A stretch of DNA of 64,000 nt. Origin: Gammaproteobacteria bacterium. Its GTDB lineage: Bacteria; Pseudomonadota; Gammaproteobacteria; S144-34. Positions within the stretch are counted from its first letter, which is position 1, and each line of letters begins with the position of its first letter. Both the position numbers and the translations under genes were made by a program. The DNA lies in contig JALSJE010000048.1 in assembly GCA_026989495.1 (NCBI GenBank), positions 1,198 through 65,197 on the forward strand, read 5' to 3'. The notes under the pieces are model-generated. The model worked only from the letters and a program-made list of their open reading frames with translations, was not told the DNA's origin and ran no database searches. Shown one piece after another: positions 9,711-64,000 of this stretch.

Positions 9711-10787
9711 TCAGGGCGGGATCACCGCCACGGCCTTGACCTGCGCATGCACGGCCAGCCCCGGCCGCAGGCCGAGACGGCGCACCGAGCGTCGCGTCAC
9801 ACGGGCGAGGAGGCGCTGGCCGGCGCAGTCGAGGCCCACGAGCGCGCGCCCCTGCGCGGGCTCGGCGGTCACGTCCGTGACGGTGGCGGGGATGACGTTG
9901 AGGATGCTGGTGCGCCCCGGCGGATCGAGGGCGAGGCTTACGTCGCGCGCCAGCACCCGCAGGCGCAGCCGCGCGCCCGGCTCACCGTGCCGGCCGGCCA
10001 CCACCAGCCGCAGCGCTCCGGCCGCCACCGTTGTGACGGCGTCCTCGGCGTCCCAGCCTTCGACCACGGCCTCCAGCACGGCGCTCGCGTCCTCGCGCCG
10101 GGCGAGCGGCAGGTCGGCCTGCGCCAGCAGCAGCGTCAACGGGCCCGCGGCGAGCACGCGCCCGGCCTCCACGTACACCAGGTGGGAGGCGAGCCGCACG
10201 GCCTCGTCCAGCTGGTGGGTGACGAGCAGCATGGGCACGGCGAGCCGCCCGCGCAGCGCCGCGAGGTCCTCCAGCAGGGCGGCGCGGGCGGGGGCGTCGA
10301 GCCCCGTGAAGGGCTCGTCCAGCACGAGCAGGCTGCGGGCGGCGACGAGGGCGCGGGCGAGCGCCGCGCGCCGGCGCTCGCCCCCGGAGAGCGCCCGTGG
10401 CGGACGCGCGCCGAGGTGCGCCACCCCCGCGAGGCGGGCGGCCTCCTCCGGGGGCATGGCGCCGGGGCCGGCGCGGCGCGCCGCGTAGCGGAGGTTCCCT
10501 GACACGGTGAGGTGGTCGAGCAGGGCGTCGTCCTGGAAGACGAAGCCGATGCCGCGCCGGTGCACGGGCATGAAGCGTCCGGCCGCGTCGTCCTGCCACA
10601 CCGATTCGCCGATGCGAACACGGCCCCGCGCGCGCTCGAGGCCCGCGATGGCCCGCAGGAGCGTGGTCTTGCCGGCGGCCGAGGGCCCGAAGACCGCAGT
10701 CACGCCGTCCAGGGGGGCCTCGAAGGTGGCGGCCAGCGTGAAGGCGCCGCGCTCCAGGCGCACGTCCACGGCGAGCGTGCCGCTCAC
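9711..10787 (-). CDS. modC: molybdate ABC transporter ATP-binding protein ModC (with C-terminal TOBE/MOP-like domain)
   Basis: Walker [10 protein letters not shown], signature LSGGERRR, Walker B LLVLDEPF. Inferred GTG start overlapping the modB stop (GTGA). The long upstream in-frame extension (to 12014) is a stop-free GC artefact. Confidence 0.8.
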
Positions 10788-13156: not shown

Positions 13157-14353
13157 TCAGGCCGCGGCGGCCAGGAACTCGCGGATCAGGGTGGCCACGC
13201 CGTCGGCGAGCGTGGCCGCCTCGCTCTCGGCGATGACGAGCGGAGGCAGGAGGCGCACCACGCGCTCGGCGGTGACGTTGACGAGCAGACCGCGGTCGAG
13301 CGCCTCGCCCACGAGCGCCCCGCAGGGCCGGTCGAGCTCGATGCCGATCATGAGGCCGAGCCCGCGCACCTCGCGTACCCCGGGCACCTCGGCCAGGGCC
13401 TCGCGCAGCCGCGCGCGCACCCATTCCCCCAGGTGCGCCGCGCGCGCGGGCAGGCCCTCGGCCTCCAGCACGTCCAGCACCGCGAGCGCGGCGCGGCAGG
13501 CGAGCGGGTTGCCGCCGAAGGTGGACGCGTGCGTGCCCGGCGCAAATAGCGCCGCGGCCTCGCCGCGGGCGAGGCAGGCGCCGATGGGCACGCCGTTGGC
13601 GAGACCCTTGGCGAGCGTGACCACGTCCGGCGTCACGCCCGCGGCCTGGCAGGCGAGGAAGGCGCCGCAGCGGCCGGTGCCGGTCTGCACCTCGTCCAGC
13701 ATCAGCAGCCAGCCGTGCTCGTCGCACAGGGTGCGCAGGCCGGCGAGGTAGTCCGGTGGCGGCACCACCACCCCGCCCTCGCCCTGCACGGGCTCGACCA
13801 GCACCGCCACCACGTCCGGGCTGTTGCGCGCCACCGTGCGCACGGCCTCGAGGTCGCCGTAGGGCACGCGCACGAAGCCGTGCACCAGGGGCTCGAACCC
13901 CGCCTGCACGCGGCGGTTGCCCGTGGCCGAAAGGGTGGCGAGGGTGCGGCCGTGGAAGCTGCCTTCGGTGACGACGACCGTGGGCACGGCCACGCCGCGG
14001 CGGCGGCCGTGCAGGCGCGCGAGCTTGATGGCGGCTTCGTTGGCTTCGGCGCCGGAGTTGCAGAAGAAGGCCGCGTCCATGCCCGTGAGCGCCGTGAGCC
14101 GCTCGGCGAGCCGCGCCTGCAGGGGGATGCGGTAGAGGTTCGAGGTGTGCAGCAGGGTGCGGGCCTGCTCGCACAGGGCCTCGGCCACCGCCGGGTGGGC
14201 GTGCCCGAGGCCGCACACTCCGATGCCGCCGATGCCGTCCAGGTAGCGGCGGCCCTCGGCGTCGTACAGCCATACGCCCTCCCCTCGCTCGAAGGCCACG
14301 GGGAGGCGGGCGTAGGTGCGCATCAGGGCGCTGTCTTCGTTCCGGTCCGTCAT
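13157..14353 (-). CDS. argD: acetylornithine aminotransferase (class III PLP aminotransferase)
   Basis: 398 aa. Class-III aminotransferase hallmarks ([10 protein letters not shown]..., FGGNPLAC). GGAGG RBS 9 nt upstream of ATG. Adjacent to argF. Confidence 0.9.
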
Positions 14354-14959
14354 GGGCCGGTTTCCTCCGGAAAAGCGAACGGCAGCCTGTCTGGCGCATC
14401 CCGGTTGCGGGACGCGGCGGGCAGACCGCCAAAAGGAAAAAAGGAATACTAGCGGTGGCGTTTGCAGGTGACAAGGTTCCAGTGCGGCACGAGCGCCCCG
14501 CCGCTTCACCCTCCCGCTTCCGGTCCCGTGCGGGGCAAAAAGGGCTCTCGTGTTGTTCTCGTGGGTGCCTCCCTGTTTGTCGAGGCGCGTTGCGGCCGGT
14601 GGGCACGGGTAACGCTCATCGACCGAGCAGGCACGCCTGTGCCGATTTCGGGGCGGTGTGGCGGCGGGGCCCGCGTGGAGCCGGCGCTCGGGCGATCCTT
14701 GCAGCCGCACCGGCCCCTCCGGCACCGTCCCGACGCCTTCGAGGCGGCTTCACCTCCGTCCGTGAACCGGGCTTCCAGACCCGATCCCCTGCCTCCGTAG
14801 GCGCGGCTTCCAGCCGCGCCGGGCCGGCTGGAAGCCGGCCCCCACAGGGCGGGAGCGCCGGGGGGCTGGTACCCGCTCCGCAGGGAGGGGCCGGAATGCC
14901 CTTTCGCGAGGGGCTTGTGTCCGACGGGGTCCCGGTCCTGTGCGCTGCGCGCTTCCATG

Positions 14960-15128
14960 GGAAAACTCTGATCAATCCGCTCCGCAGATTGATCAGCGCT
15001 AGAGTGCTTCGCGATCCATTTTCGATTTTTTTCGTATCGTCATGCACTTCCCTGTGCATGGGCCGTCCCGCGGCCATCCATGGCCGCGGGGAAGGTCTGA
15101 AAAATCGCAATTTTTCAGACCTTCCATG
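14960..15128 (+). repeat. ~168-bp intergenic repeat element, copy 1 (three hairpins); second copy at 19928-20094
   Basis: Direct sequence comparison: the two copies share about 80% identity over ~165 bp. Hairpins: CTGATCAAT...ATTGATCAG, CATGCAC-ttccc-GTGCATG, GGTCTGAAAAAT-cgca-ATTTTTCAGACC. GC content is below the genome background. Confidence 0.8.
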
Positions 15129-15196
15129 GGTCTTGCCGCGCATGCCGGACGCGATGCGCATCGACGAAGGGATTGCCCACGAAAACGACAGAAGAT

Positions 15197-15232
15197 CCAA
15201 AAAAACGGGAGACGGGCGTGCCCGTCTCCCGT
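15197..15232 (-). terminator. rho-independent terminator of the 15258-15770 minus-strand gene
   Basis: On the minus strand: CGGGAGACGGGC-acg-CCCGTCTCCCG stem followed by TTTTTTT, 25 nt after the stop codon. Confidence 0.7.
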
Positions 15233-15257
15233 ATGCGTATTTGCGGATCCCGCAGCC

Positions 15258-15770
15258 TCAGAAGGGCAGACCGTGGCCCTGCGCCGTCATGCACATGAGC
15301 ATCGGGATGGAGAGCATCGTGTTTGTGCGCGAGGCGAGGAAGGCGATCTTCTTGGCCTTTGCCTTCTCCTCGTCGCTCGCCTGCACCAGCCCGAGCACCT
15401 TCTTCTGGTTGGGCCAGATCAGGACCCAGACGTTGAAGAGCATGATGGTGCCGAGCCAGGCGCCCACGCCGATGATCCGCATTCCCGGATCGGAGAGCGT
15501 GAAGGCGGCGACGAAGCCCGAGCCCTCGCCCTGGTACATGGTCTCCAGGGCCGCGGCGCCCGACAGCCAGGTCACCACCGCCGCCCAGCGGAACCAGAGC
15601 AGCGCCCGCGGGGCCACGTACTTGCTGATCGCGGCCGGGCCGGGGCCGTCCTTGTCGGCGGCCGCCTCGGCGAGCGCGGGCACCTGCACGAAGTTGAAGT
15701 AGTACAGGAGGCCGATCCAGGTGATGCCGGCCAGCACGTGCAGCCAGACTTCGATTTCCCAGAGGTTCAT
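15258..15770 (-). CDS. hypothetical inner-membrane protein (~4 TM helices)
   Basis: 170 aa, hydrophobic. N-terminal W-x-H-x-x-AGI-x-WIG-x-x-YF pattern is reminiscent of the membrane domain fused to PuuD-like urate hydroxylases (weak recollection, not verified). Confidence 0.5.
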   Translation of the reverse strand: MNLWEIEVWLHVLAGITWIGLLYYFNFVQVPALAEAAADKDGPGPAAISKYVAPRALLWFRWAAVVTWLSGAAALETMYQGEGSGFVAAFTLSDPGMRIIGVGAWLGTIMLFNVWVLIWPNQKKVLGLVQASDEEKAKAKKIAFLASRTNTMLSIPMLMCMTAQGHGLPF

Positions 15771-18143: not shown

Positions 18144-19970
18144 GTGTGCGGCATCTGCGGCGAGCTGCGCCTGGACGGCGCCGCGGCGGACCCGGGCGCC
18201 CTCGCTCCCATGCTCGCGCGGCTCGTGCGCCGCGGCCCCGACGCCGAGGGCCGCTGGCACGACGGCCCCGTGGCCCTCGGCCACCGGCGGCTTGCCATCA
18301 TCGACCTTTCGGAGCGCGCCAACCAGCCCATGCGCGACCCGGACACGGGTTGCGTCATCGTCTTCAACGGCACCATCTACAACTGGCCCGAGCTGCGGCG
18401 CGAGCTCGAGGGCCGAGGCCACCGCTTCCGCACCGAGGGCGACACCGAGGTCATCCTCAAGGCCTGGGCCGAGTGGGGCGAACGCTGCGTGGAGCGCCTG
18501 CATGGCATGTTCGCCTTCGGCCTGTGGGACCCGCGCGCGCGGCGGCTCTTCCTCGCCCGCGACCGTCTCGGGATCAAGCCCCTCTACTACACCCTCGACC
18601 GGCGGAGGCTCCGCTTCGCCTCCACCGCCCAGGCCCTGCTCGCCGCCGGCGGCGTGGACACCGCCATCGACCCCGTGGCCCTGCACCACCTGTTCACCCT
18701 GCACGCGGTGGTGCCGGCCCCGCGCACCATCCTCGCCGGGGTGCGCAAGCTCGCCCCCGCCCACACGCTCACGGTGCCCGCCCCCGAGGGCGGGCGGCGC
18801 TTCGCGCTGCGGCGTTATTGGCGGCTCGTGGCCCGGCGTCCCGACTTCCTGCGCAGCGAGGACGAATGGGCGGAGGCGGTGCGGGCGGCGCTGGTGCGCG
18901 CCGTGGAGCGGCGGCTGCGCATCGCCGACGTGCCGGTGGGCGTGCTGCTGTCGGGGGGGCTCGACTCGAGCCTGCTGGTGGGGCTGCTCGCCGCGCAGGG
19001 GGTCGAGGACCTGCGCACCTTCTCCGTCGGCTTCGAGGACGTGGGCGCCGAGAGGGGGTCGGAATTCGAGTACTCGGACCTGGTGGCCGAGCGCTTCCGC
19101 ACGCGCCACCACCGCTGGCGCATCCCCAACGACGAGGTGCTCGCGCGGCTGCCCGAGGCGGTCGAGCACATGGCCGAGCCCATGTTCGGGCAGGACGCGG
19201 TGGCCTTCTATCTGCTCGCCGAGCGCGTCGCGCGCGAGGTCAAGGTGGTGCAGAGCGGCCAGGGCGCCGACGAGGTCTTCGGCGGCTACTTCTGGTATCC
19301 GCGCATGATGGCCGAGCCGGAGGGCCTGCCCGAGGTGGAGCGCTTCCGACGCCACTACTTCGACCGCGACCACCCCGAGTACCTGCGCATGGTGCGCCCG
19401 CGCTGGCGCGGACCCGACCACACGCGCGCGCGTGTGGCGGCGCTGCTGGCCGCGCAGGAGGCCGACACCTTCATGGACCGGGTGCTCGCCCTCGACGTCA
19501 CCACCCTCATCGTGGACGACCCGGTCAAGCGCGTGGACAACATGACCATGGCCTGGGGGCTGGAGGCGCGCGTGCCCTTCCTCGACCAGGAGGTGGTGGA
19601 GCTGGCCGCGCAGGTCCCGCCCGAGCTCAAGCTGCGCACCGGCGGCAAGCACCTGCTCAAGCGCATCGCCCGCGGGCTCCTGCCGGACGCCGTCATCGAC
19701 CGCCCCAAGGGCTACTTCCCGGTGCCCGCCCTCAAGTACGTGCGTGGGTCTGCGCTCGCCTTCATGCGCGAGGTGCTCGCCTCGCGCGCCTGCCGCGAGC
19801 GCGGCCTCTACGACCACGCCTACGTGGAGACGCTGCTGGCCGACCCCGAGCGCCACCTCACGCGCATCCAGGGCAGCAAGCTGTTCCACCTGGCGCTGCT
19901 GGAGCTGTGGCTGCAGCGCAACGTGGATGGAAACTCTGATCAATCCGCTGCGCGGATCGATCAGCACTGA
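18144..19970 (+). CDS. asnB: asparagine synthase (glutamine-hydrolysing)
   Basis: GTG start then CGICG (Cys2 nucleophile of class II GATase). SGGLDSS PP-loop. 608 aa. The last 13 codons and the stop lie inside repeat copy 2. Confidence 0.9.
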
Positions 19971-20094
19971 GGCGCTTCGCGGCCGTTCTGATTTTCCTTG
20001 AGTCGTCATGCGCTTCCCAGTGCATGGGCCGTCCCGCGGCCGTCCCTGGCCGCGGGGAAGGTCCGAAAAACCGAGATTTTTCAGACCTTCCGGA
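19928..20094 (+). repeat. ~165-bp intergenic repeat element, copy 2 (overlaps asnB 3' end)
   Basis: Aligns with 14960-15128 (same orientation). Hairpins retained with a few substitutions, including G-U-compatible changes. Confidence 0.8.
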
Positions 20095-20217
20095 TGAGGC
20101 CGCGCAGGCGTGATAACGCCACTGGCCCTGCCTTTATTCCCCCGGGAGGGGGGCGTAGACTAGGCGGCCCTCCCGGCGCGGCCGGGGCAGCGAACGGCGA
20201 GTTCACACGGGGGAGCC

Positions 20218-20592
20218 ATGACCGACGACGTCCTCGAGCGCATCCGCAAGCAGGTGGAGAGCAACCCGGTGATCCTCTACATGAAGGGGACGCCGGAGTT
20301 CCCGATGTGCGGCTACTCGGCCCGCGCGGCCCAGGCGCTGCAGCAATGCGGGGTGGAGTTCGCCTATGTGAACGTCCTGATGGACCCCGAGATCTTCGAG
20401 AACCTGCCCCGCTTCGCCAACTGGCCGACCTTTCCCCAGCTCTACATCAATGGCGAGCTGGTGGGCGGCTGCGACATCACCCTGGAGCTGTTCGAGAAGG
20501 GCGAGCTGCAGAAGATGGTCCGCGAGGCCGTCGAGCGCCATCGGGCGAAGACCGGCGAGGCCGAGACGGACGGGGAGCGGCAGGGCGGCTGA
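20218..20592 (+). CDS. grxD: monothiol glutaredoxin, Grx4 family
   Basis: Near-collinear with E. coli GrxD (ILLYMKG..P.CG.S..A.QAL...G..FAYV..L..P.....L....NWPTFPQL...GELVGGCDI). Active-site motif is CGYS rather than canonical CGFS. Confidence 0.9.
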   Translation: MTDDVLERIRKQVESNPVILYMKGTPEFPMCGYSARAAQALQQCGVEFAYVNVLMDPEIFENLPRFANWPTFPQLYINGELVGGCDITLELFEKGELQKMVREAVERHRAKTGEAETDGERQGG

Positions 20593-20598
20593 GCCGCC

Positions 20599-21354
20599 TC
20601 AGCCCCCTTCCTCCTCCGGCGCGGGCGCCGACGGAACCGCACCCTCGACCCCCTTCGAGGCCTCGGCTTCTGCGGCCGCCCCGGCGCCGGGGGCCTGCTG
20701 GAGCCGGTCCCAGGCGAGCGCCTTCTCCTCCAGCTCGCGCCAGCGGTTGACGATGGCGCAGAACAGATCCGCCGTGCGCTCGGCGTCGTAGATCGCCGAG
20801 TGCGCCTCCTTCTCGTCCCATCCGATGCCGGCTGCCTCGGCCGCCCGCCGCAGCACCGTCTGCCCGTAGGCGAGGCCCGCGAGCGAGACCGTGTCGAAGG
20901 TGCTGAAGGGGTGGAAGGGGTTGCGCTTGACCCCGGCGCGGGCGGCGGCGGCGTTGACGAAGGCGAGGTCGAAGGCGGCGTTGTGGCCCACCAGGATGGC
21001 CCGCTTGCAGCCGGTCTCCTTCATGAGCTTGCGGATGGGCTTGAAGATCCGCTCCAGCGCCTCCTTCTCGCTCACGGCGAAGCGGAAGGGGTGCCAGGGA
21101 TCGATGCCCGTGAACTCGAGCGCCTTGCGGTCGATGTGAGCGCCCTCGAAGGGGATCACGTGCGCCGAGTAGGTGGCGTCACGGCGCAGCCGCCCGGCCC
21201 CGTCCATGCGCAGCAGCACGGCCGCGATCTCCAGCAGCGCGTCCTTCCTGGGGTCGAAGCCGCCCGTCTCCACGTCCACCACCACCGGCAGATAGCCGCG
21301 GAAACGGGCCGCCATGGTGGATGCGGGCGCTGGGGGCTGGGGCTGGCCGGTCAT
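20599..21354 (-). CDS. rnt: ribonuclease T (DEDDh 3'-5' exoribonuclease)
   Basis: Collinear with E. coli RNase T ([52 protein letters not shown]). Adjacent and convergent to grxD as in E. coli. C-terminal Ala/Glu-rich extension. Confidence 0.9.
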
Positions 21355-27838: not shown

Positions 27839-30800
27839 ATGGCAGAGCGCTACGTCATCAGGATGCCCCAGCTCTCGGACACCATGACCGAGGGCGTGGT
27901 GGTGGGCTGGCAGAAGGCCATCGGCGAGAAGGTCTCGCGCGGCGACGTGGTCGCCCAGGTCGAGACCGACAAGGCCATCATGGACGTGGAGGTCTTCCGC
28001 GAGGGGTATCTCTCGGGGCCGCGCGCGCCGGAGGGCGCCACCGTGCCGGTGGGCGAGCCCATCGCCTATCTGGTGCCGACGCCGGAGGAGGTGGTGGGCG
28101 AGGAGGGGACGGCACCGCCGTCGCCGGAGGCGCCCGCGCCCGCCCCCGAAGCCACCCCGGCGGCCGAGCCTCCCGCGCCGCCGCAGTCCGCCGCGGGAGA
28201 GGGTGCGAGGGGTGATGGCGCGGTCCGGCCGCCCGAGGGGGTGGTGCACGTCATCAGGATGCCCCAGCTCTCGGACACCATGACCGAGGGCGTCGTCGTG
28301 GCCTGGGTCAAGCAGCCCGGCGACAAGGTCGCACGCGGCGACGTGGTCGCCCAGGTGGAGACCGACAAGGCCGTCATGGACGTGGAGGTCTTCCGCGAGG
28401 GCTACCTTTCGGGACCGCTCGCGCCCGTGGACGGCACCGTGCCGGTGGGCGAGCCCATCGGCTACCTGGTCGAGCGCCCCGAGCAGGTGGTGCAGGGTGA
28501 GGCCGCCCCTGCGGCCGCGCCCGCGCCGGCCGCCGCCCCGGCGGCGCCTCCGGCGCCCGCGCGGCCGGAGACCCCGGTGCCTGCGGCGCCGGCCCCGCCC
28601 GCTGCGCGCCGCCCCGGCGCGCCGCCCGCGCCACGGCCCACCAACCGCTACGCCACCCCCTACGCGCGCAAGCTCGCCGGCGAGCTGCAGGTGAACCTGG
28701 AGCACGTGCAGGGGACGGGCCCAGGCGGCGTGATCACCGGCGATGACGTGCTGCGCGCCCAGCCTGTGGCGCGCCCGCGTGAGGCGGCCCCGCTCCCCGC
28801 CCCCGAGCTCATGCCGGAGGCGCAGGTGCCGGGCGAGGGCCGGCCCATGACGGCGATGGAACGCGCGGTGGCGCGCTCCATGACGGCCGCGCTCACCATG
28901 CCCACCTTCCACGCCACCGTGCACGCGCGCCCCGACGCCCTCGTGCGCGGCGCCAAGCGGCGCGGTGTCTCGGTGACGGTGGCGCTCGCCAAGGCCTGCG
29001 CCGAGGCGCTGCGGCGCCACCCGCGCATGAACTGGGCCTACCAGCCGGTGGACCGCATCGTCGAGCGCGCGCAGGTGGACATCGGCATGGCGGTGGCGGC
29101 CGAGGACGGCGGGCTCGTGGTGCCGGTGCTGCGCCGCTGCGAGGCGCGCCCCCTGGAGGAGCTGCACGCCGAGTGGAAGGGGCTGGTCGAGCGCGCGCGC
29201 AAGCGCCGCCTCAAGCCCCAGGAGTACGCCAACCCCACGTTCATGATCTCCAACATGGGGATGCTGAACGTGGACTGGTTCGACGCCATCCCCACGCCGG
29301 GCACGGCGGCCATCCTCGCCGTGGCCACCGCGGGCGAGCGGGGCATGCCCCTCACCATCACCGCCGATCACCGGGTGGTGAACGGCGCCGAGGTCGCGGC
29401 CTTCCTCAACACCCTGCGCGAGCTGGTGGAGCGGCCCGACGACTGGCTCGCCCCCCCCGGGCCACGCATCCCCGAGGGCGAGTGGGACTGGCCGGTGGTG
29501 GTCATCGGTGGCGGGCCCGGCGGCGAGGACTGTGCGCGCGAGCTCGCCGAGCACGGCATCAAGGTGGCGCTGGTCAACGACGCCCCGCTCCCCGGTGGCG
29601 AGTGCCTGTGGCGCGGCTGCATCCCGTCCAAGACCTGGCGCGCCGCCGCCGACCGCATCCGCGACCGCGCCCACGACGCCCGCCTCGGGGTGCTGGGCAC
29701 CGCCAGGCCGCGTCTCGACTGGAAGCGCCTCGAGGCCACCCGCCGGGAGGTGCTCGAGACCCGCGGCGCGATGGCCCTCAAGACCGACAAGGGCATGAAG
29801 GTGGAGGTGATCCAGGGGCGCGCGCGCTTCGAGGACGCCCACACCCTGTTCATCGACACCTCCCACCTGCCGGAGGACCCCCACGCCCGCCCCGGCCCCG
29901 GCGACGGCAGCGAGGGCTACCGCATCACCTTCGGCTGCGCCGTGATCGCCACCGGCGCGCCGCCCTTCGTGCCGCCCATCCCCGGCGCCCGCGAGGGCCT
30001 GGAGACCGGCGGCGTCCTCACCTCCGACACCGTGTGGTCCCTCGAGGGCCCGCCGAAGCGCATGGTGGTGGTGGGCGGCGGGGCCATCGGCGCCGAGATG
30101 GCGCAGATGTTCCAGGACTTCGGCACGCGCGTGCTGCTGCTCGAGGCGCGCAGCCGCATCCTGGCCGAGGTCGAGCCCGAGATCGCCGAGCGGCTCGGGG
30201 CCGTGCTCGCCGCCGATCCGCGCCTGGAGGTCCATGTCTCGGTGCGCATCGAGAGCCTCTCGGGCGAGCCCGGCGCCATGAAGGTGCGCTGGCGCGACGC
30301 CGAAGGGAAGCGGCGCACGACGACCTGCGATCGCGTGCTCATGGCCACGGGCAAGCGCCCCGTGCTCGAGCCCCTGCAGCTCGACCGGGCGGGCGTGGCG
30401 GTGCGCGACGGCGTCATCGCCGTGGACGACGGCTGCCGCACCTCGGTCCCGCACATCTATGCCGTCGGGGATGCGAACGGCGGCTACATGCTCGCCCACA
30501 CGGCGGCGACCCAGGGGCGCGTGGCCGCGGCCCGGATCCTGGGCGAGCCGCGCCGCTACGATCCGGACCTCGACTGCGGCGTCATCTTCACCCGCCCCCA
30601 GGCCGCCTTCGTGGGCCTCGACGTCGAGCGGGCCAGGGCCAAGGGGCTCGACCCGGCCGAGGTCAAGGTGCCGCTCGGCATCGACGCCAAGGCCATGATC
30701 ACGGGCGAGACCGAGGGCCTCATCAAGCTCGTGGCCGACAAGGCGAGCCACCGCATCGTGGGGGTGCACCTGCTCGCCGACCACGCCGACACCCTGATCG

Positions 30801-46039: not shown

Positions 46040-46261
46040 GCCCCGGCCCGGGGGCTCGCGCCGGCGGGCGGCGCAGTGGGCACGGGCGCGGAGCGCAGAC
46101 GCGGCCCATCGGCGCGCGCCCGCAGGCGGGGACGGGGAACCCCGCCCACGCGCTCGAACCCGCGGCACCGGGGCCGGGGCTGAGCCGGCGGACGGCGCCG
46201 GGCGCGCGCCTGCGCCCGGCCTTGTGCGGTCCCGGCCGCGCGCCTTAGACTCCCGCGCGTC

Positions 46262-60426: not shown

Positions 60427-61464
60427 TCAGTCGAAGGCGACACTCCGGCCCACGGGTACGGGCAGGCGCGGAGCCTCGATGGACGGGAAGGGCCCGGTGA
60501 GGGCCTGCAGGAAGGCGACGATGTCGGCCACGTCGCGCTCGGAAAGGGTGCGCCCGAGCTGGGTCGAAGCCATCACGCGCACGGCCTCGTCGAGGGTGGC
60601 GACCGCGCCGTTGTGGAAGTAGGGTGCGGTCACGGCCACGTTGCGCAGCGTGGGCACCCGGAACAGGTGCCTGTCTTCGGGACGCTTCGTGACCTCGTGC
60701 CGGCCGGTGTCCTTCGCGAGACCATAGCGCTCGACGTAGGGGCTGTCGGCGAAGACCGGGAATTTCTGGAACGGGGCCTCGGGCCGTGCGCCGAAGAGCG
60801 GCCCTGTGTGGCACCCGGCGCAGCCCAGCGCGCGGAACCGCTCGTAACCACGCACTTGCTGTTCAGTCATCGCGCCGCGCTCGCCCATCACCCACCGGTC
60901 GAAGGGGCTACCGGGCGTGACGAGGGTCCGCTCGAAGCTCGCCACCGCCTTGGCGAAGTTGTCCGCCGTGACGGGCGAGTCGCCACCGAAGGCCTCCCGG
61001 AACATGGGCTCGTAGCCTAGGGCCTTCAGGCGCTCGACGAGCACGTCGAGGCTGGGCAGCCCCATCTCGATCGGATTGGTCACAGGGCCGAGGGCCTGCT
61101 CCTCGAGAGAGGCGGCACGGCCGTCCCAGAACTGGACCGGATGGAAGGCGGCGTTCCACACGGTGGGGGCATTGCGGCCACCGATCTGTCCGCCCACCCC
61201 GACCGAGGTGGGCCGGCCGTCCTCTCCGCCCGCCATGACGTTATGGCAGGAGTTGCATGAGACGGTGCCGGTCGAGGAGAGGCGGGGGTCGAAGTAGAGG
61301 GCCTTGCCGAGCCGGACCTTGGCCTCGGTCACGGGGTTGTCGGCCGGCGCGGGCGCCTGCTCGGGTAGGGCCAGCCAGCCGGCGGCGGCCGCCAGCGCGG
61401 GCGCCGCCAGGGTCAGTCCGCTGGCCACCATCCCGAGGAGAGAGCGCAGTAGAGGTCTCGACAT
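60427..61464 (-). CDS. ccpA: di-haem cytochrome c peroxidase
   Basis: Two CxxCH (CNSCH, CAGCH), conserved Trp/His of bacterial CCP, signal peptide. Start at second Met with AAGGAGGAAG RBS. Confidence 0.9.
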   Translation of the reverse strand: MSRPLLRSLLGMVASGLTLAAPALAAAAGWLALPEQAPAPADNPVTEAKVRLGKALYFDPRLSSTGTVSCNSCHNVMAGGEDGRPTSVGVGGQIGGRNAPTVWNAAFHPVQFWDGRAASLEEQALGPVTNPIEMGLPSLDVLVERLKALGYEPMFREAFGGDSPVTADNFAKAVASFERTLVTPGSPFDRWVMGERGAMTEQQVRGYERFRALGCAGCHTGPLFGARPEAPFQKFPVFADSPYVERYGLAKDTGRHEVTKRPEDRHLFRVPTLRNVAVTAPYFHNGAVATLDEAVRVMASTQLGRTLSERDVADIVAFLQALTGPFPSIEAPRLPVPVGRSVAFD

Positions 61465-61565
61465 GTTACTTCCTCCTTCTGTCACCATGTTATGAATGGA
61501 ATTAGACCAATTCTATATCATAATAACATGGTTTCCTAAAAAAGTATAGCCTATGGGACATTTCC

Positions 61566-61579
61566 TTGACCGGGATCAA
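61566..61579 (-). promoter_or_regulatory. candidate FNR/CRP-family binding site (TTGAC-N4-ATCAA) upstream of the cytochrome c peroxidase gene
   Basis: TTGACcgggATCAA palindrome in the AT-rich 142-bp region between valS 3' end and the peroxidase gene. Nearby TATACT on the minus strand. Confidence 0.35.
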
Positions 61580-61606
61580 GCCGGAAGGGTGCCCGGGGCG
61601 GGGGGC

Positions 61607-64000
61607 TTAGAGGGCGCGGATGCGCTCGGCCTGGGCCTCGAGGCCGGCGATGGCGCGCTCGAGCTCGGCGGCCCGCTGCCGCTCCTTCTCCACCACCGCC
61701 GCCGGGGCCTTCTCGACGAAGCTGGGGTTGGCGAGCTTGGACCGGGCCCGCTCGAGGCCGGCGCGCAGCTTCTCGAGCTCCTTGGCCAGGCGGCGCAGCT
61801 CGGCCTCCTTGTCGATCAGGCCCGCCATGGGGATGAGGACCTCCACCGCGCCCGCCACGGCGGTGGCCGACTCGGGCGGCTCCTCGCCCGCCTCCAGCCA
61901 GCGCAGCGACTCGATGCGCCCGAGCGCCCGCACCGCGCGCTCGTGGCGGGCGAGCCGCTCGCGCGCGGCGGCGTCGCCGCCGCGCAGCAGCACCGGCAGC
62001 GGCCGCGAGGGGGCGATGTCCATCTCGCCGCGGATGCGCCGCACCGCGAGCACCAGGTCCATCACCCAGCGCAGCTCGGCCTCGGCCGCAGGGTCGCGCG
62101 CGGCCTCGTCCGGCTCGGGATAGGGCCGCTCCATGATGGTTTCGCCGCGCACGCCCGCCACCGGGGCGATGCGCTGCCAGATCTCCTCCGTGATGAAGGG
62201 CATGATGGGGTGGGCAAGGCGCGCGAGCGCCTCCAGCACCTCCGCCAGCGTGCGGCGCACGGCGCGCTGGCGCGCGGGGTCGGCTTCAGGGTCGTTGAGC
62301 ACCGGCTTGGCGAGCTCCACGTACCAGTCGCAGTACTCGTCCCACACGAAGGCGTAGATCGCCTGGGCGGCGAGGTCGAAGCGGTAGCCGGCGAAGGCCT
62401 CGTGCACGGCGCGCACGGCCGCCTCCAGCCGCGAGCGGATCCAGCGCTCGGCCGGCCCGGGCTCGAGGTGCGCGACCGTCTGCCCTAGGTCCCGGCCCTC
62501 GGTGTTCATGAGCACGAAGCGCGCCGCGTTCCAGAGCTTGTTGCAGAAGTTGCGGTAGCCCTCGATGCGCCCGAGGTCGAAATTGATGTTGCGCCCGGGG
62601 GTGGCGAGCGAGGCGAAGGTGAAGCGCAGGGCGTCGGTCCCGTAGGCGGGAATGCCGTTGGGGAACTGGCGGCGGGTGGCGGCCTCGATGCGCCTGGCCA
62701 TCTGCGGCTGCATGAGGCCGCTGATGCGCTTGGCCACCAGCGACTCGAGGTCGATGCCGTCGATGAGGTCGATGGGATCGAGGACGTTGCCCTTCGACTT
62801 CGACATCTTCTGCCCCTCGGCGTCGCGCACCAGCCCGTGCACGTACACCTCGCGGAAGGGCACGTCGCCCGCGAAGCGCAGGCCCATCATGATCATGCGC
62901 GCGACCCAGAAGAAGATGATGTCGAAGCCCGTGACCAGCACGCTGGTGGGATAGAAGGTCCGCAGCTCGGGCGTCTCCTCGGGCCAGCCCAGGGTGGAGA
63001 AGGGCCACAGCGCCGAGGAGAACCAGGTGTCGAGCACGTCCGGGTCCTGCTCCAGGGGGACGTCCGCGGGCAGGCCCGCGCGCCGGCGCGCGTCCCGCTC
63101 GTCGTGGCCCACGTAGACGTTGCCATGGGGGTCGTACCAGGCCGGGATGCGGTGGCCCCACCAGATCTGGCGGCTGATGCACCAGTCCTGGATGTTGCGC
63201 ATCCACTCGAAGTAGGTCTTCGCCCAGCTCTCTGGGATGAAACGGATGCGGCCCTCCTCCACGGCGCGGATGGCGGGCTCGGCGAGCGGCTGCGTGCGCA
63301 CGAACCATTGGTCCGTGAGGAAGGGCTCGAGCACGGCACCGGTGCGGTCGCCGCGGGGAACGGCGTGGCGGTGGCGCTCGAGCTTCTCCAGCAGTCCCTG
63401 GGCCTCGAGGTCGGCGACCACGCGCTGGCGCGCCTCGAAGCGGTCGAGGCCGCGGTAGGGCTCGGGCACCTGGTCGTTGAGGTGCCCGTCGGCGGTGAGG
63501 ATGTTGACCATGGGCAGCCCGTGGCGGCGGCCCACCTCGTAGTCGTTGAAGTCGTGGGCGGGGGTGATCTTGACGCAGCCCGTGCCGAAGGCGGGGTCCA
63601 CGTAGTCGTCGGCGATGACCGGGATGCGGCGGCCGGCGAGCGGCAGCAGCACGTCCTTGCCTATGAGGTGGCGGTAGCGCTCGTCCTCGGGGTGCACGGC
63701 CACGGCCGTGTCGCCCAGGAGGGTCTCGGGGCGGGTGGTGGCGACCACCAGGTGGCCCGAGCCGTCGGCGAGCGGATAGCGGATGTGCCAGAGGTAGCCG
63801 TCCTCCTCCTCGGCCACCACCTCCAGGTCGGAGACGGCCGTGCGCAGCACCGGGTCCCAGTTGACCAGGCGCTTGCCCCGGTAGATGAGACCCTCCTCGT
63901 AGAGGCGGATGAAGACCTCGCGCACCGCGCGTGACATGCCCTCGTCCAGCGTGAAGCGCGCGCGGCTCCAGTCGATGGCGCAGCCGAGGCGGCGCATCTG
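61607..64000 (-). CDS. valS: valine--tRNA ligase (3' portion; N-terminus beyond window edge)
   Basis: KMSKS, class I editing/anticodon-binding regions and C-terminal coiled-coil. The ORF runs off the window end. Confidence 0.95.

Follow-up and report, generated by a model that had tools for sequence, protein, structure and literature searches.

A short, hairpin-rich repeat of a high-GC gammaproteobacterium, probably a mobile element of the MITE type

The Correia elements of Neisseria and the ERIC/IRU repeats of enterobacteria are hairpin-forming intergenic MITEs of 100 to 170 bp that are co-transcribed with neighboring genes and have orientation-dependent effects on mRNA. REP and IS200/IS605 systems produce no target-site duplication and insert beside a fixed tetra- or pentanucleotide, and single-strand transposons targeting the lagging strand are known for a biased insertion orientation. 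IS5 generates a 4-bp target duplication and has the target preference YTAR. MITEs are defined as short elements (50 to 1,000 bp) without a transposase gene, and the bacterial members derived from the IS5 family include BrickBuilt, MITE293, and MITE700 of Porphyromonas gingivalis as well as the ATR repeat of Neisseria, which is linked to ISNme1 (PMC4596501). The repeat described here has in common with the IS5-family-derived MITEs that it is short, noncoding, and multicopy, has a GC content below that of its host, and possesses terminal inverted repeats and target duplications. It differs from them in that both ends form hairpins, each terminus pairing with an inverted copy of itself inside the element, and in that its targets are not YTAR. 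No sequence similarity to Correia or ERIC/IRU elements is present; in those, TA is duplicated and the structure is one long imperfect palindrome, whereas the present element duplicates 4 bp of any sequence and is composed of four separate hairpins. In our assessment, it is highly probable that the repeats are copies of a MITE, i.e., a non-autonomous DNA transposon, which would be served in trans by a DDE-type transposase of a presumably IS5-family-like partner. The family appears to be undescribed so far, the kind of element itself being ordinary.

The window, i.e., the whole 64-kb stretch of DNA that was analyzed, contains two copies of the element and no third one. In a blastn comparison, positions 14963 to 15125 and 19931 to 20091 were 84.8% identical over 164 nt (E = 2e-42) in the same orientation. 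This bears out the two look-alike copies in equal orientation noticed in the first-pass annotation, the identity being slightly above the approximately 80% given there, and the GC content is indeed lower than that of the surroundings (52% for copy 1 and 60% for copy 2 versus 73.6% for the window). The ends of the copies were refined by family alignment and flank comparison to the positions given in Table 1. The element is 162 to 165 bp long (165 bp for copy 1, 163 bp for copy 2), carries no transposase gene, and is too short for one. Its ends are sharp, reading GGAAACTCTGATCAATCC ... ATTTTTCAGACCTT(C/T)C. They form imperfect 18-bp terminal inverted repeats, in which the left sequence GGAAACTCTGATCAATCC and the right sequence GGAAGGTCTGAAAAATCG, read inward, match at 13 of 18 positions; in variant subfamilies the match is weaker still.

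Gene calls for the window were taken from a near-identical ENA contig, and a codon-model caller trained on those calls arrived at the same genes independently. Copy 1 lies within a 904-bp gap, with argD (13157 to 14353, minus strand) on one side and a gene encoding a Urate_ox_N domain (15258 to 15770, minus strand) on the other. The latter gene has a strong terminator at 15232 to 15205 on the minus strand, and a promoter-like site of argD is located at 14474 to 14446. Copy 2 overlaps the final 42 nt of an asnB-like open reading frame (ORF), and translation shows that its first 42 nt provide this gene with its 13 terminal codons and its stop codon. Both contexts are those described in the first-pass annotation, copy 1 between a terminator and the argD upstream region and copy 2 at the asnB 3' end. 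The product name of the ORF, N-acetylglutaminylglutamine amidotransferase, comes from named homologues and denotes an osmolyte-synthesis enzyme; judged by this ORF, Inmirania and Thioalkalivibrio come closest among named organisms, with 70 to 76% identity. A monothiol glutaredoxin gene follows downstream of copy 2, at 20218. The element accounts for two odd low-GC structured stretches, for part of the unusually long argD upstream region, and for the changed C terminus of the osmolyte-synthesis gene. Both window copies have a stop in frame at the same position, which prompted the idea that the left end is a conserved coding tail (NSDQSA..); this reading was rejected because copy 1 has no in-frame upstream ORF and nearly all other copies are intergenic. 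The argD upstream gap, which comprises 14354 to 15257 in the window, measures only 437 bp in a relative (L015, 6423 to 6859), where it contains GGTTAC tandem repeats and no element; beyond the first approximately 50 bp beside argD, the two gaps are largely unalignable.

Table 1. Positions of the repeat copies, their flanking duplications, and their hairpins in the window
Feature	Position	Strand	Remarks
Element copy 1 (probable MITE), GAAAACTCTGATCAATCC...ATTTTTCAGACCTTCC	14961..15125	+	nhmmer 175 bits; ends from family alignment
Copy 1 left target-site duplication ATGG	14957..14960		Same ATGG at 15126-15129
Copy 1 right target-site duplication ATGG	15126..15129		Same ATGG at 14957-14960
Copy 1 left-end hairpin	14968..14996		Covers left terminal repeat positions 8-20; fold and family alignment
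Copy 1 7-bp hairpin	15041..15060		Minus-strand loop AGGGAA; family alignment
Copy 1 9-bp hairpin	15067..15090		Minus-strand loop AUGGAU; family alignment
Copy 1 right-terminal 16-bp hairpin	15090..15125		Right terminal inverted repeat forms its outer arm; fold and family alignment
N-acetylglutaminylglutamine amidotransferase (asnB-like) gene	18144..19970	+	3' end ..NVDEAAQA* exchanged for element-encoded tail
Element copy 2 (probable MITE)	19929..20091	+	nhmmer 164 bits; site is empty in L015 and L019 (relatives)
Copy 2 left target-site duplication GGAT	19925..19928		Same GGAT at 20092-20095; only one GGAC and no element in relatives
Copy 2 right target-site duplication GGAT	20092..20095		Same GGAT at 19925-19928
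Copy 2 left-end hairpin	19936..19964		Fold
Copy 2 7-bp hairpin	20007..20026		Minus-strand loop UGGGAA; fold
Copy 2 9-bp hairpin	20033..20056		Minus-strand loop AGGGAC; fold
Copy 2 right-terminal hairpin	20056..20091		Fold

The site of copy 2 is empty in two relatives, L015 and L019, in which the amidotransferase is 91 to 92% identical and the gene order is the same. Where the relatives have GTGGACGG joined directly to GGCC (or GTGGACGG to GGCCACGAAGGCGTGA), the window reads GTGGAT, then the 163-bp element, then GGATGAGGCC (longer version, GGATGAGGCCGCGCAGGCGTGA). Because the element-free flanks of the relatives align base for base with those of the window, GGAT was duplicated by the insertion of copy 2. 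The insertion, which took place five codons ahead of the amidotransferase stop, swapped the original tail of the protein (..NVDEAAQA*) for one encoded by the element. The converse polymorphism was found as well: in L015, a 279-bp variant flanked by the duplication TGAA/TGAG is inserted between the stop of a BON gene and the asnB start, a site at which neither the window nor L019 carries an insertion. Presence/absence polymorphism with intact empty sites was thus seen twice in the comparison of the window with its relatives, once in each direction.

Target-site duplications were scored for the 22 elements with both ends readable, which include the window and sister-species copies. Perfect 4-bp duplications, for which the chance expectation is 1/256 per element, flank 11 of the 22; four more show a match at three of four positions, and the remaining seven have no clear duplication. 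The perfect duplications (GCAG, TACC, AACC, ACCT, GCGC, ATCA, TCTC, AGAT, TGAC, ATGG, and GGAT) are mutually unrelated. Nesting was also observed, one copy being located inside a 43-bp mini-element built from two left ends, and in other copies a 12-nt left end occurs twice or the right end is doubled.

The extent of the family was determined by scanning metagenome contigs with a palindromic pattern derived from the terminal hairpin. This pattern matched 31 loci, 15 of which are contigs of a single JGI metagenome with 70 to 75% GC; all 15 contain the element. The other 16 loci (36 to 57% GC) match the pattern alone. With an nhmmer profile, about 22 copies were located on the 15 high-GC contigs, with up to four per 14-kb locus, and the relatives were found to hold copies at other loci also. 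All 26 copies that were mapped lie between called genes or extend no more than 42 nt into a gene end. A scan of genome contigs with GCGGGGAAGGTCYGAAAAA gave 13 matches in unrelated taxa, all to the pattern only, and missed the sister-species copies, which differ at this sequence. A blastn search of 72,556 plasmids with the consensus returned only chance matches of 30 nt, and viral contigs scanned with the central hairpins gave zero matches. The nhmmer profile can be used to mask or count the repeat in metagenome-assembled genomes of this lineage, where such repeats break assemblies. In L015, copies of a variant subfamily, whose left hairpins are truncated at the 5' side and whose terminal hairpin is GC rich, are arranged in tandem downstream of leuA (20206 to 20650, with a run of N inside). 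The long variant of the sister species is distinguished by a 125-bp insert, and a GC-rich module in an intergenic region of the window (46072 to 46129, within 46040 to 46261) is 90% identical to this insert over 60 nt; the corresponding L015 positions are 9778 to 9902 and 20646 to 20701.

The features expected of a MITE are present: the element is short and without a transposase gene, its copies are dispersed, and target-site duplications, terminal inverted repeats, and empty-site polymorphism were all found. Of the "REP/MITE-like" classification proposed in the first-pass annotation, the MITE part is well supported by the 4-bp duplications, empty sites, approximately 22 further copies, nesting, and terminal repeats, and the REP part is not supported. 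As for the possible origin, the right end agrees with the inverted repeat of E. coli IS5 (GGAAGGTGCGAATAAG, K-12 record) at 12 of 16 positions, and the first 7 bases of the right terminus GGAAGGTCTGAAAAAT are identical; the match of the left end to IS5A of E. coli K-12 is much weaker (11 to 12 of 20 positions). In a direct comparison with the quoted sequence, GGAAGGTCTGAAAAAT and the ISNme1 repeat GAGACCTTTGCAAAA show a similar spacing of G, T, and the A run. The duplicated targets of the element do not fit the YTAR preference of IS5. Neither a full-length element nor a solitary terminal repeat was detected in about 300 kb (the window plus about 240 kb of related loci), and tblastn with the E. 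coli IS5 transposase InsH gave no match in all fetched DNA, again about 300 kb. Since no partner was found there, we infer the IS5-family link solely from the terminus and the duplication length. In the proposed mechanism, a DDE-type transposase from a full-length insertion sequence at another genomic location would cut and paste the element in trans, making a 4-bp staggered cut in the target whose repair would leave the 4-bp duplication at each copy; the right terminus and this duplication would point to an IS5-family-like partner. The element is dispersed through the genome of an uncultured high-GC gammaproteobacterium and that of its sister species, where it occupies almost only intergenic positions or gene ends.

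Both copies fold considerably better than shuffled sequences on either strand, with z-scores of -3.7 to -8.2, and contain four hairpins; RNAalifold predicts the same four helices unaided. The left-end hairpin (CTGATCAATCCGC/GCGGATTGATCAG) has 13 bp in the family consensus and is followed by a 7-bp hairpin (CATGCAC/GTGCATG), a 9-bp hairpin (CCCGCGGCC/GGCCGCGGG), and a terminal hairpin of 16 bp (GGAAGGTCTGAAAAAT/ATTTTTCAGACCTTCC) that reaches the very last base of the element. The inverted repeats reported in the first-pass annotation are therefore real, but there are four rather than three; the stems given there as 9 bp and 12 bp extend to 13 bp (in the consensus) and 16 bp, respectively, and the 7-bp stem, correctly recognized, does not flank a CCGCGG-centered palindrome, the 9-bp hairpin being a separate structure that adjoins it. 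In an alignment of 21 copies, the proportion of paired helix cells is 97.2% for the plus strand and 98.7% for the minus strand, compared with 26 to 44% in slid controls. Changes of both arms occur at four pairs, namely, G-C to A-U (eight copies), G-C to C-G (four copies), U-A to G-C or C-G (four copies), and A-U to G-C (three copies). Moreover, in variant subfamilies of a relative, the GC-rich terminal hairpin is rebuilt as GGAGGCCCCGAAGG/CCTTCGGGGCCTCC and the left stem as CTGCGCGATCCGC/GCGGATCGCGCAG. Because both arms change together and variant hairpins are rebuilt with different bases, hairpin pairing is maintained across the family. Template switching in quasi-palindromes, an established mutational mechanism, can copy one arm onto the other, and the maintained pairing may reflect such switching or inheritance from subfamily founders and is not proof of selection. 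The hairpins may serve in transposition, may act as RNA when co-transcribed, or may owe their perfection to template-switch repair. When subfamilies are compared, conservation is higher in the central hairpins than at the termini. An element constrained by its transposase alone would show the opposite, and this pattern counts as evidence against the MITE reading.

This conservation pattern bears on an alternative that we regard as unlikely, according to which the element is, or was recruited as, a functional RNA module, a possible secondary role in line with the structured RNA offered in the first-pass annotation. Its minus strand would carry putative CsrA/RsmA sites in the form of A-N-GGA hairpins and a linker AUGGAC, by which the copies would bring adjacent genes under the control of Csr/Rsm or would sequester the protein; this reading concerns function and would leave the transposition of the element unaffected. 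Part of the argument comes from the loops: on the minus strand, one central loop reads A-N-GGA-Y in 19 of the 21 copies and the other A-(G/C)-GGA-A in all 21, so that GGA is kept while the adjacent base N is freely A, C, G, or U, and the linker AUGGAC is common among the copies. Paired GGA hairpins are the described CsrA/RsmA-binding motif (PMC4333381, PMC4383904), and the TwoAYGGAY RNA is predicted to bind CsrA in a paper that also describes such GGA hairpins as coming in pairs (PMC4333381). When eight copies were compared with Rfam by cmscan, four aligned via their two central hairpins, always on the minus strand, to TwoAYGGAY (RF01731; 25.7 and 25.6 bits) and RsmW (RF02809; 24.5 and 22.2 bits), both members of clan CL00106. 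The RNAs of this Csr/Rsm clan and the minus strand of the element share two adjacent hairpins with GGA-centered hexaloops, and GCCAGGGACGGC of the element equals the RsmW consensus of the last RsmW hairpin. Set against this, the scores of 22 to 26 bits are far under the gathering scores of 43 to 52, copy 2 has no Rfam match at all, and the Rfam check suggested in the first-pass annotation returned no family at gathering thresholds across the whole window, leaving only these subthreshold alignments. Unlike TwoAYGGAY and RsmW, the element lacks its own promoter and terminator, occurs in tens of copies, and is a transposon with target duplications. Specifically, a scan for sigma-70-like promoters and intrinsic-terminator-like sites detected none inside either copy, a result that counts against an RNA module. 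Neither a sigma-54 nor a sigma-70 promoter within the element is supported.

Besides the loops, two further observations point to the minus strand of the element. Where only one side of a stem has changed, the minus strand keeps a wobble-compatible pair in 21 cells versus 12, the plus strand in 7 versus 26, which favors the minus strand; these cell counts are not independent, as subfamilies inherit changes. According to the codon-model gene calls, the minus strand of the element is the sense strand of its neighbors in 18 insertions and the plus strand in four, with four ambiguous cases. This bias of 18 to 4 also fits an RNA module (binomial P = 0.004; P = 0.012 if three copies of one locus are counted once), but insertion linked to replication, or selection against the opposite orientation, could also produce it. 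Many copies lie 7 to 50 nt from the flanking genes in same-direction pairs and are therefore probably co-transcribed with them, as judged from the gene arrangement. The window copies themselves are poor candidates, copy 1 being located behind a strong terminator and copy 2 belonging to the minority orientation, in which the minus-strand reading is antisense. In the literature searched, no paper linking MITEs with CsrA/RsmA was found, and we know of no described Csr/Rsm small RNAs for the host lineage. A tblastn search with CsrA gave no match in the fetched DNA and is uninformative on the presence of csrA. Taken together, the hairpin termini, the better-conserved central GGA-loop hairpins, and the 18:4 bias give a hint that the cell encounters the element in the form of RNA. 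A further proposal, which we consider quite unlikely, combines both views: the MITE would be a mobile carrier of a CsrA/RsmA-type module with two to three GGA sites in its minus-strand hairpins, of which selection would have kept mainly the mRNA-sense insertions. If true, the element would, in this lineage of gammaproteobacteria, spread posttranscriptional control sites or serve as a distributed protein sponge.

Very improbable, in our view, is a REP/REPIN-type or IS200/IS605-derived palindrome moved as single-stranded DNA by a hairpin-recognizing Y1/HUH transposase. Such an origin would suit the hairpins at or near both ends, the stems upheld by both-arm changes even where the terminal sequence of variants has been replaced, and the insertion orientation, which is biased as for single-strand transposons that target the lagging strand. 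With the RAYT-mobilized REP/BIME/REPIN repeats, the element also has in common that it is intergenic, palindromic, high-copy, and orientation biased, and a genuine REP-like doublet family occurs nearby in the same genome. REPs, however, are units of 20 to 40 nt without target-site duplication, unlike the 165-bp element with its four hairpins and 4-bp duplication. In place of the absent duplication and the fixed insertion motif characteristic of REP/IS200/IS605 elements, perfect 4-bp duplications of variable, unrelated sequence were found at 11 of 22 elements, and the empty site reveals a true duplication. Because REP and IS200/IS605 systems leave no target-site duplication, neither reading is supported, and the same applies to the IS200/IS605-type TnpA partner suggested in the first-pass annotation. 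A chance local duplication or segmental copy without mobility, for which the presence of only two copies in the 64-kb window could be cited, is extremely improbable in view of approximately 22 copies on unrelated contigs, the sister-species loci, the target-site duplications, and the empty sites; the first-pass annotation would have abandoned its claim had there been only two copies and none in relatives, and about 22 further copies as well as those of the sister species were found.

Further repeats were noted in the window and its relatives apart from the MITE family. The REP-like family, which is unrelated to it, consists of a double palindrome in which GGCGCGGCTTCCAGCCGCGCC precedes GGGCCGGCTGGAAGCCGGCC; some sites have one unit only. 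Copies of this family are located in the window (14800 to 14840) and in related loci (L032, 6088 to 6149; L049, 11468 to 11499; L036, 8460 to 8500 and 7868 to 7937); in the window, L032, and L049, a copy lies about 25 to 120 nt from a MITE copy. A direct repeat of 286 nt (27852 to 28137 and 28248 to 28533; 81% identity, spacing of 396) has a core that translates to ETDKA(I/V)MDVEV, a lipoyl-attachment motif, which indicates duplicated lipoyl domains of an E2 acyltransferase downstream of E1 genes. Finally, the stretch of lowest GC content in the window (61376 to 61651; 43%) is intergenic and contains a long inverted repeat (CCATGTTAT...ATAACATGG); it is probably an operator/promoter region.
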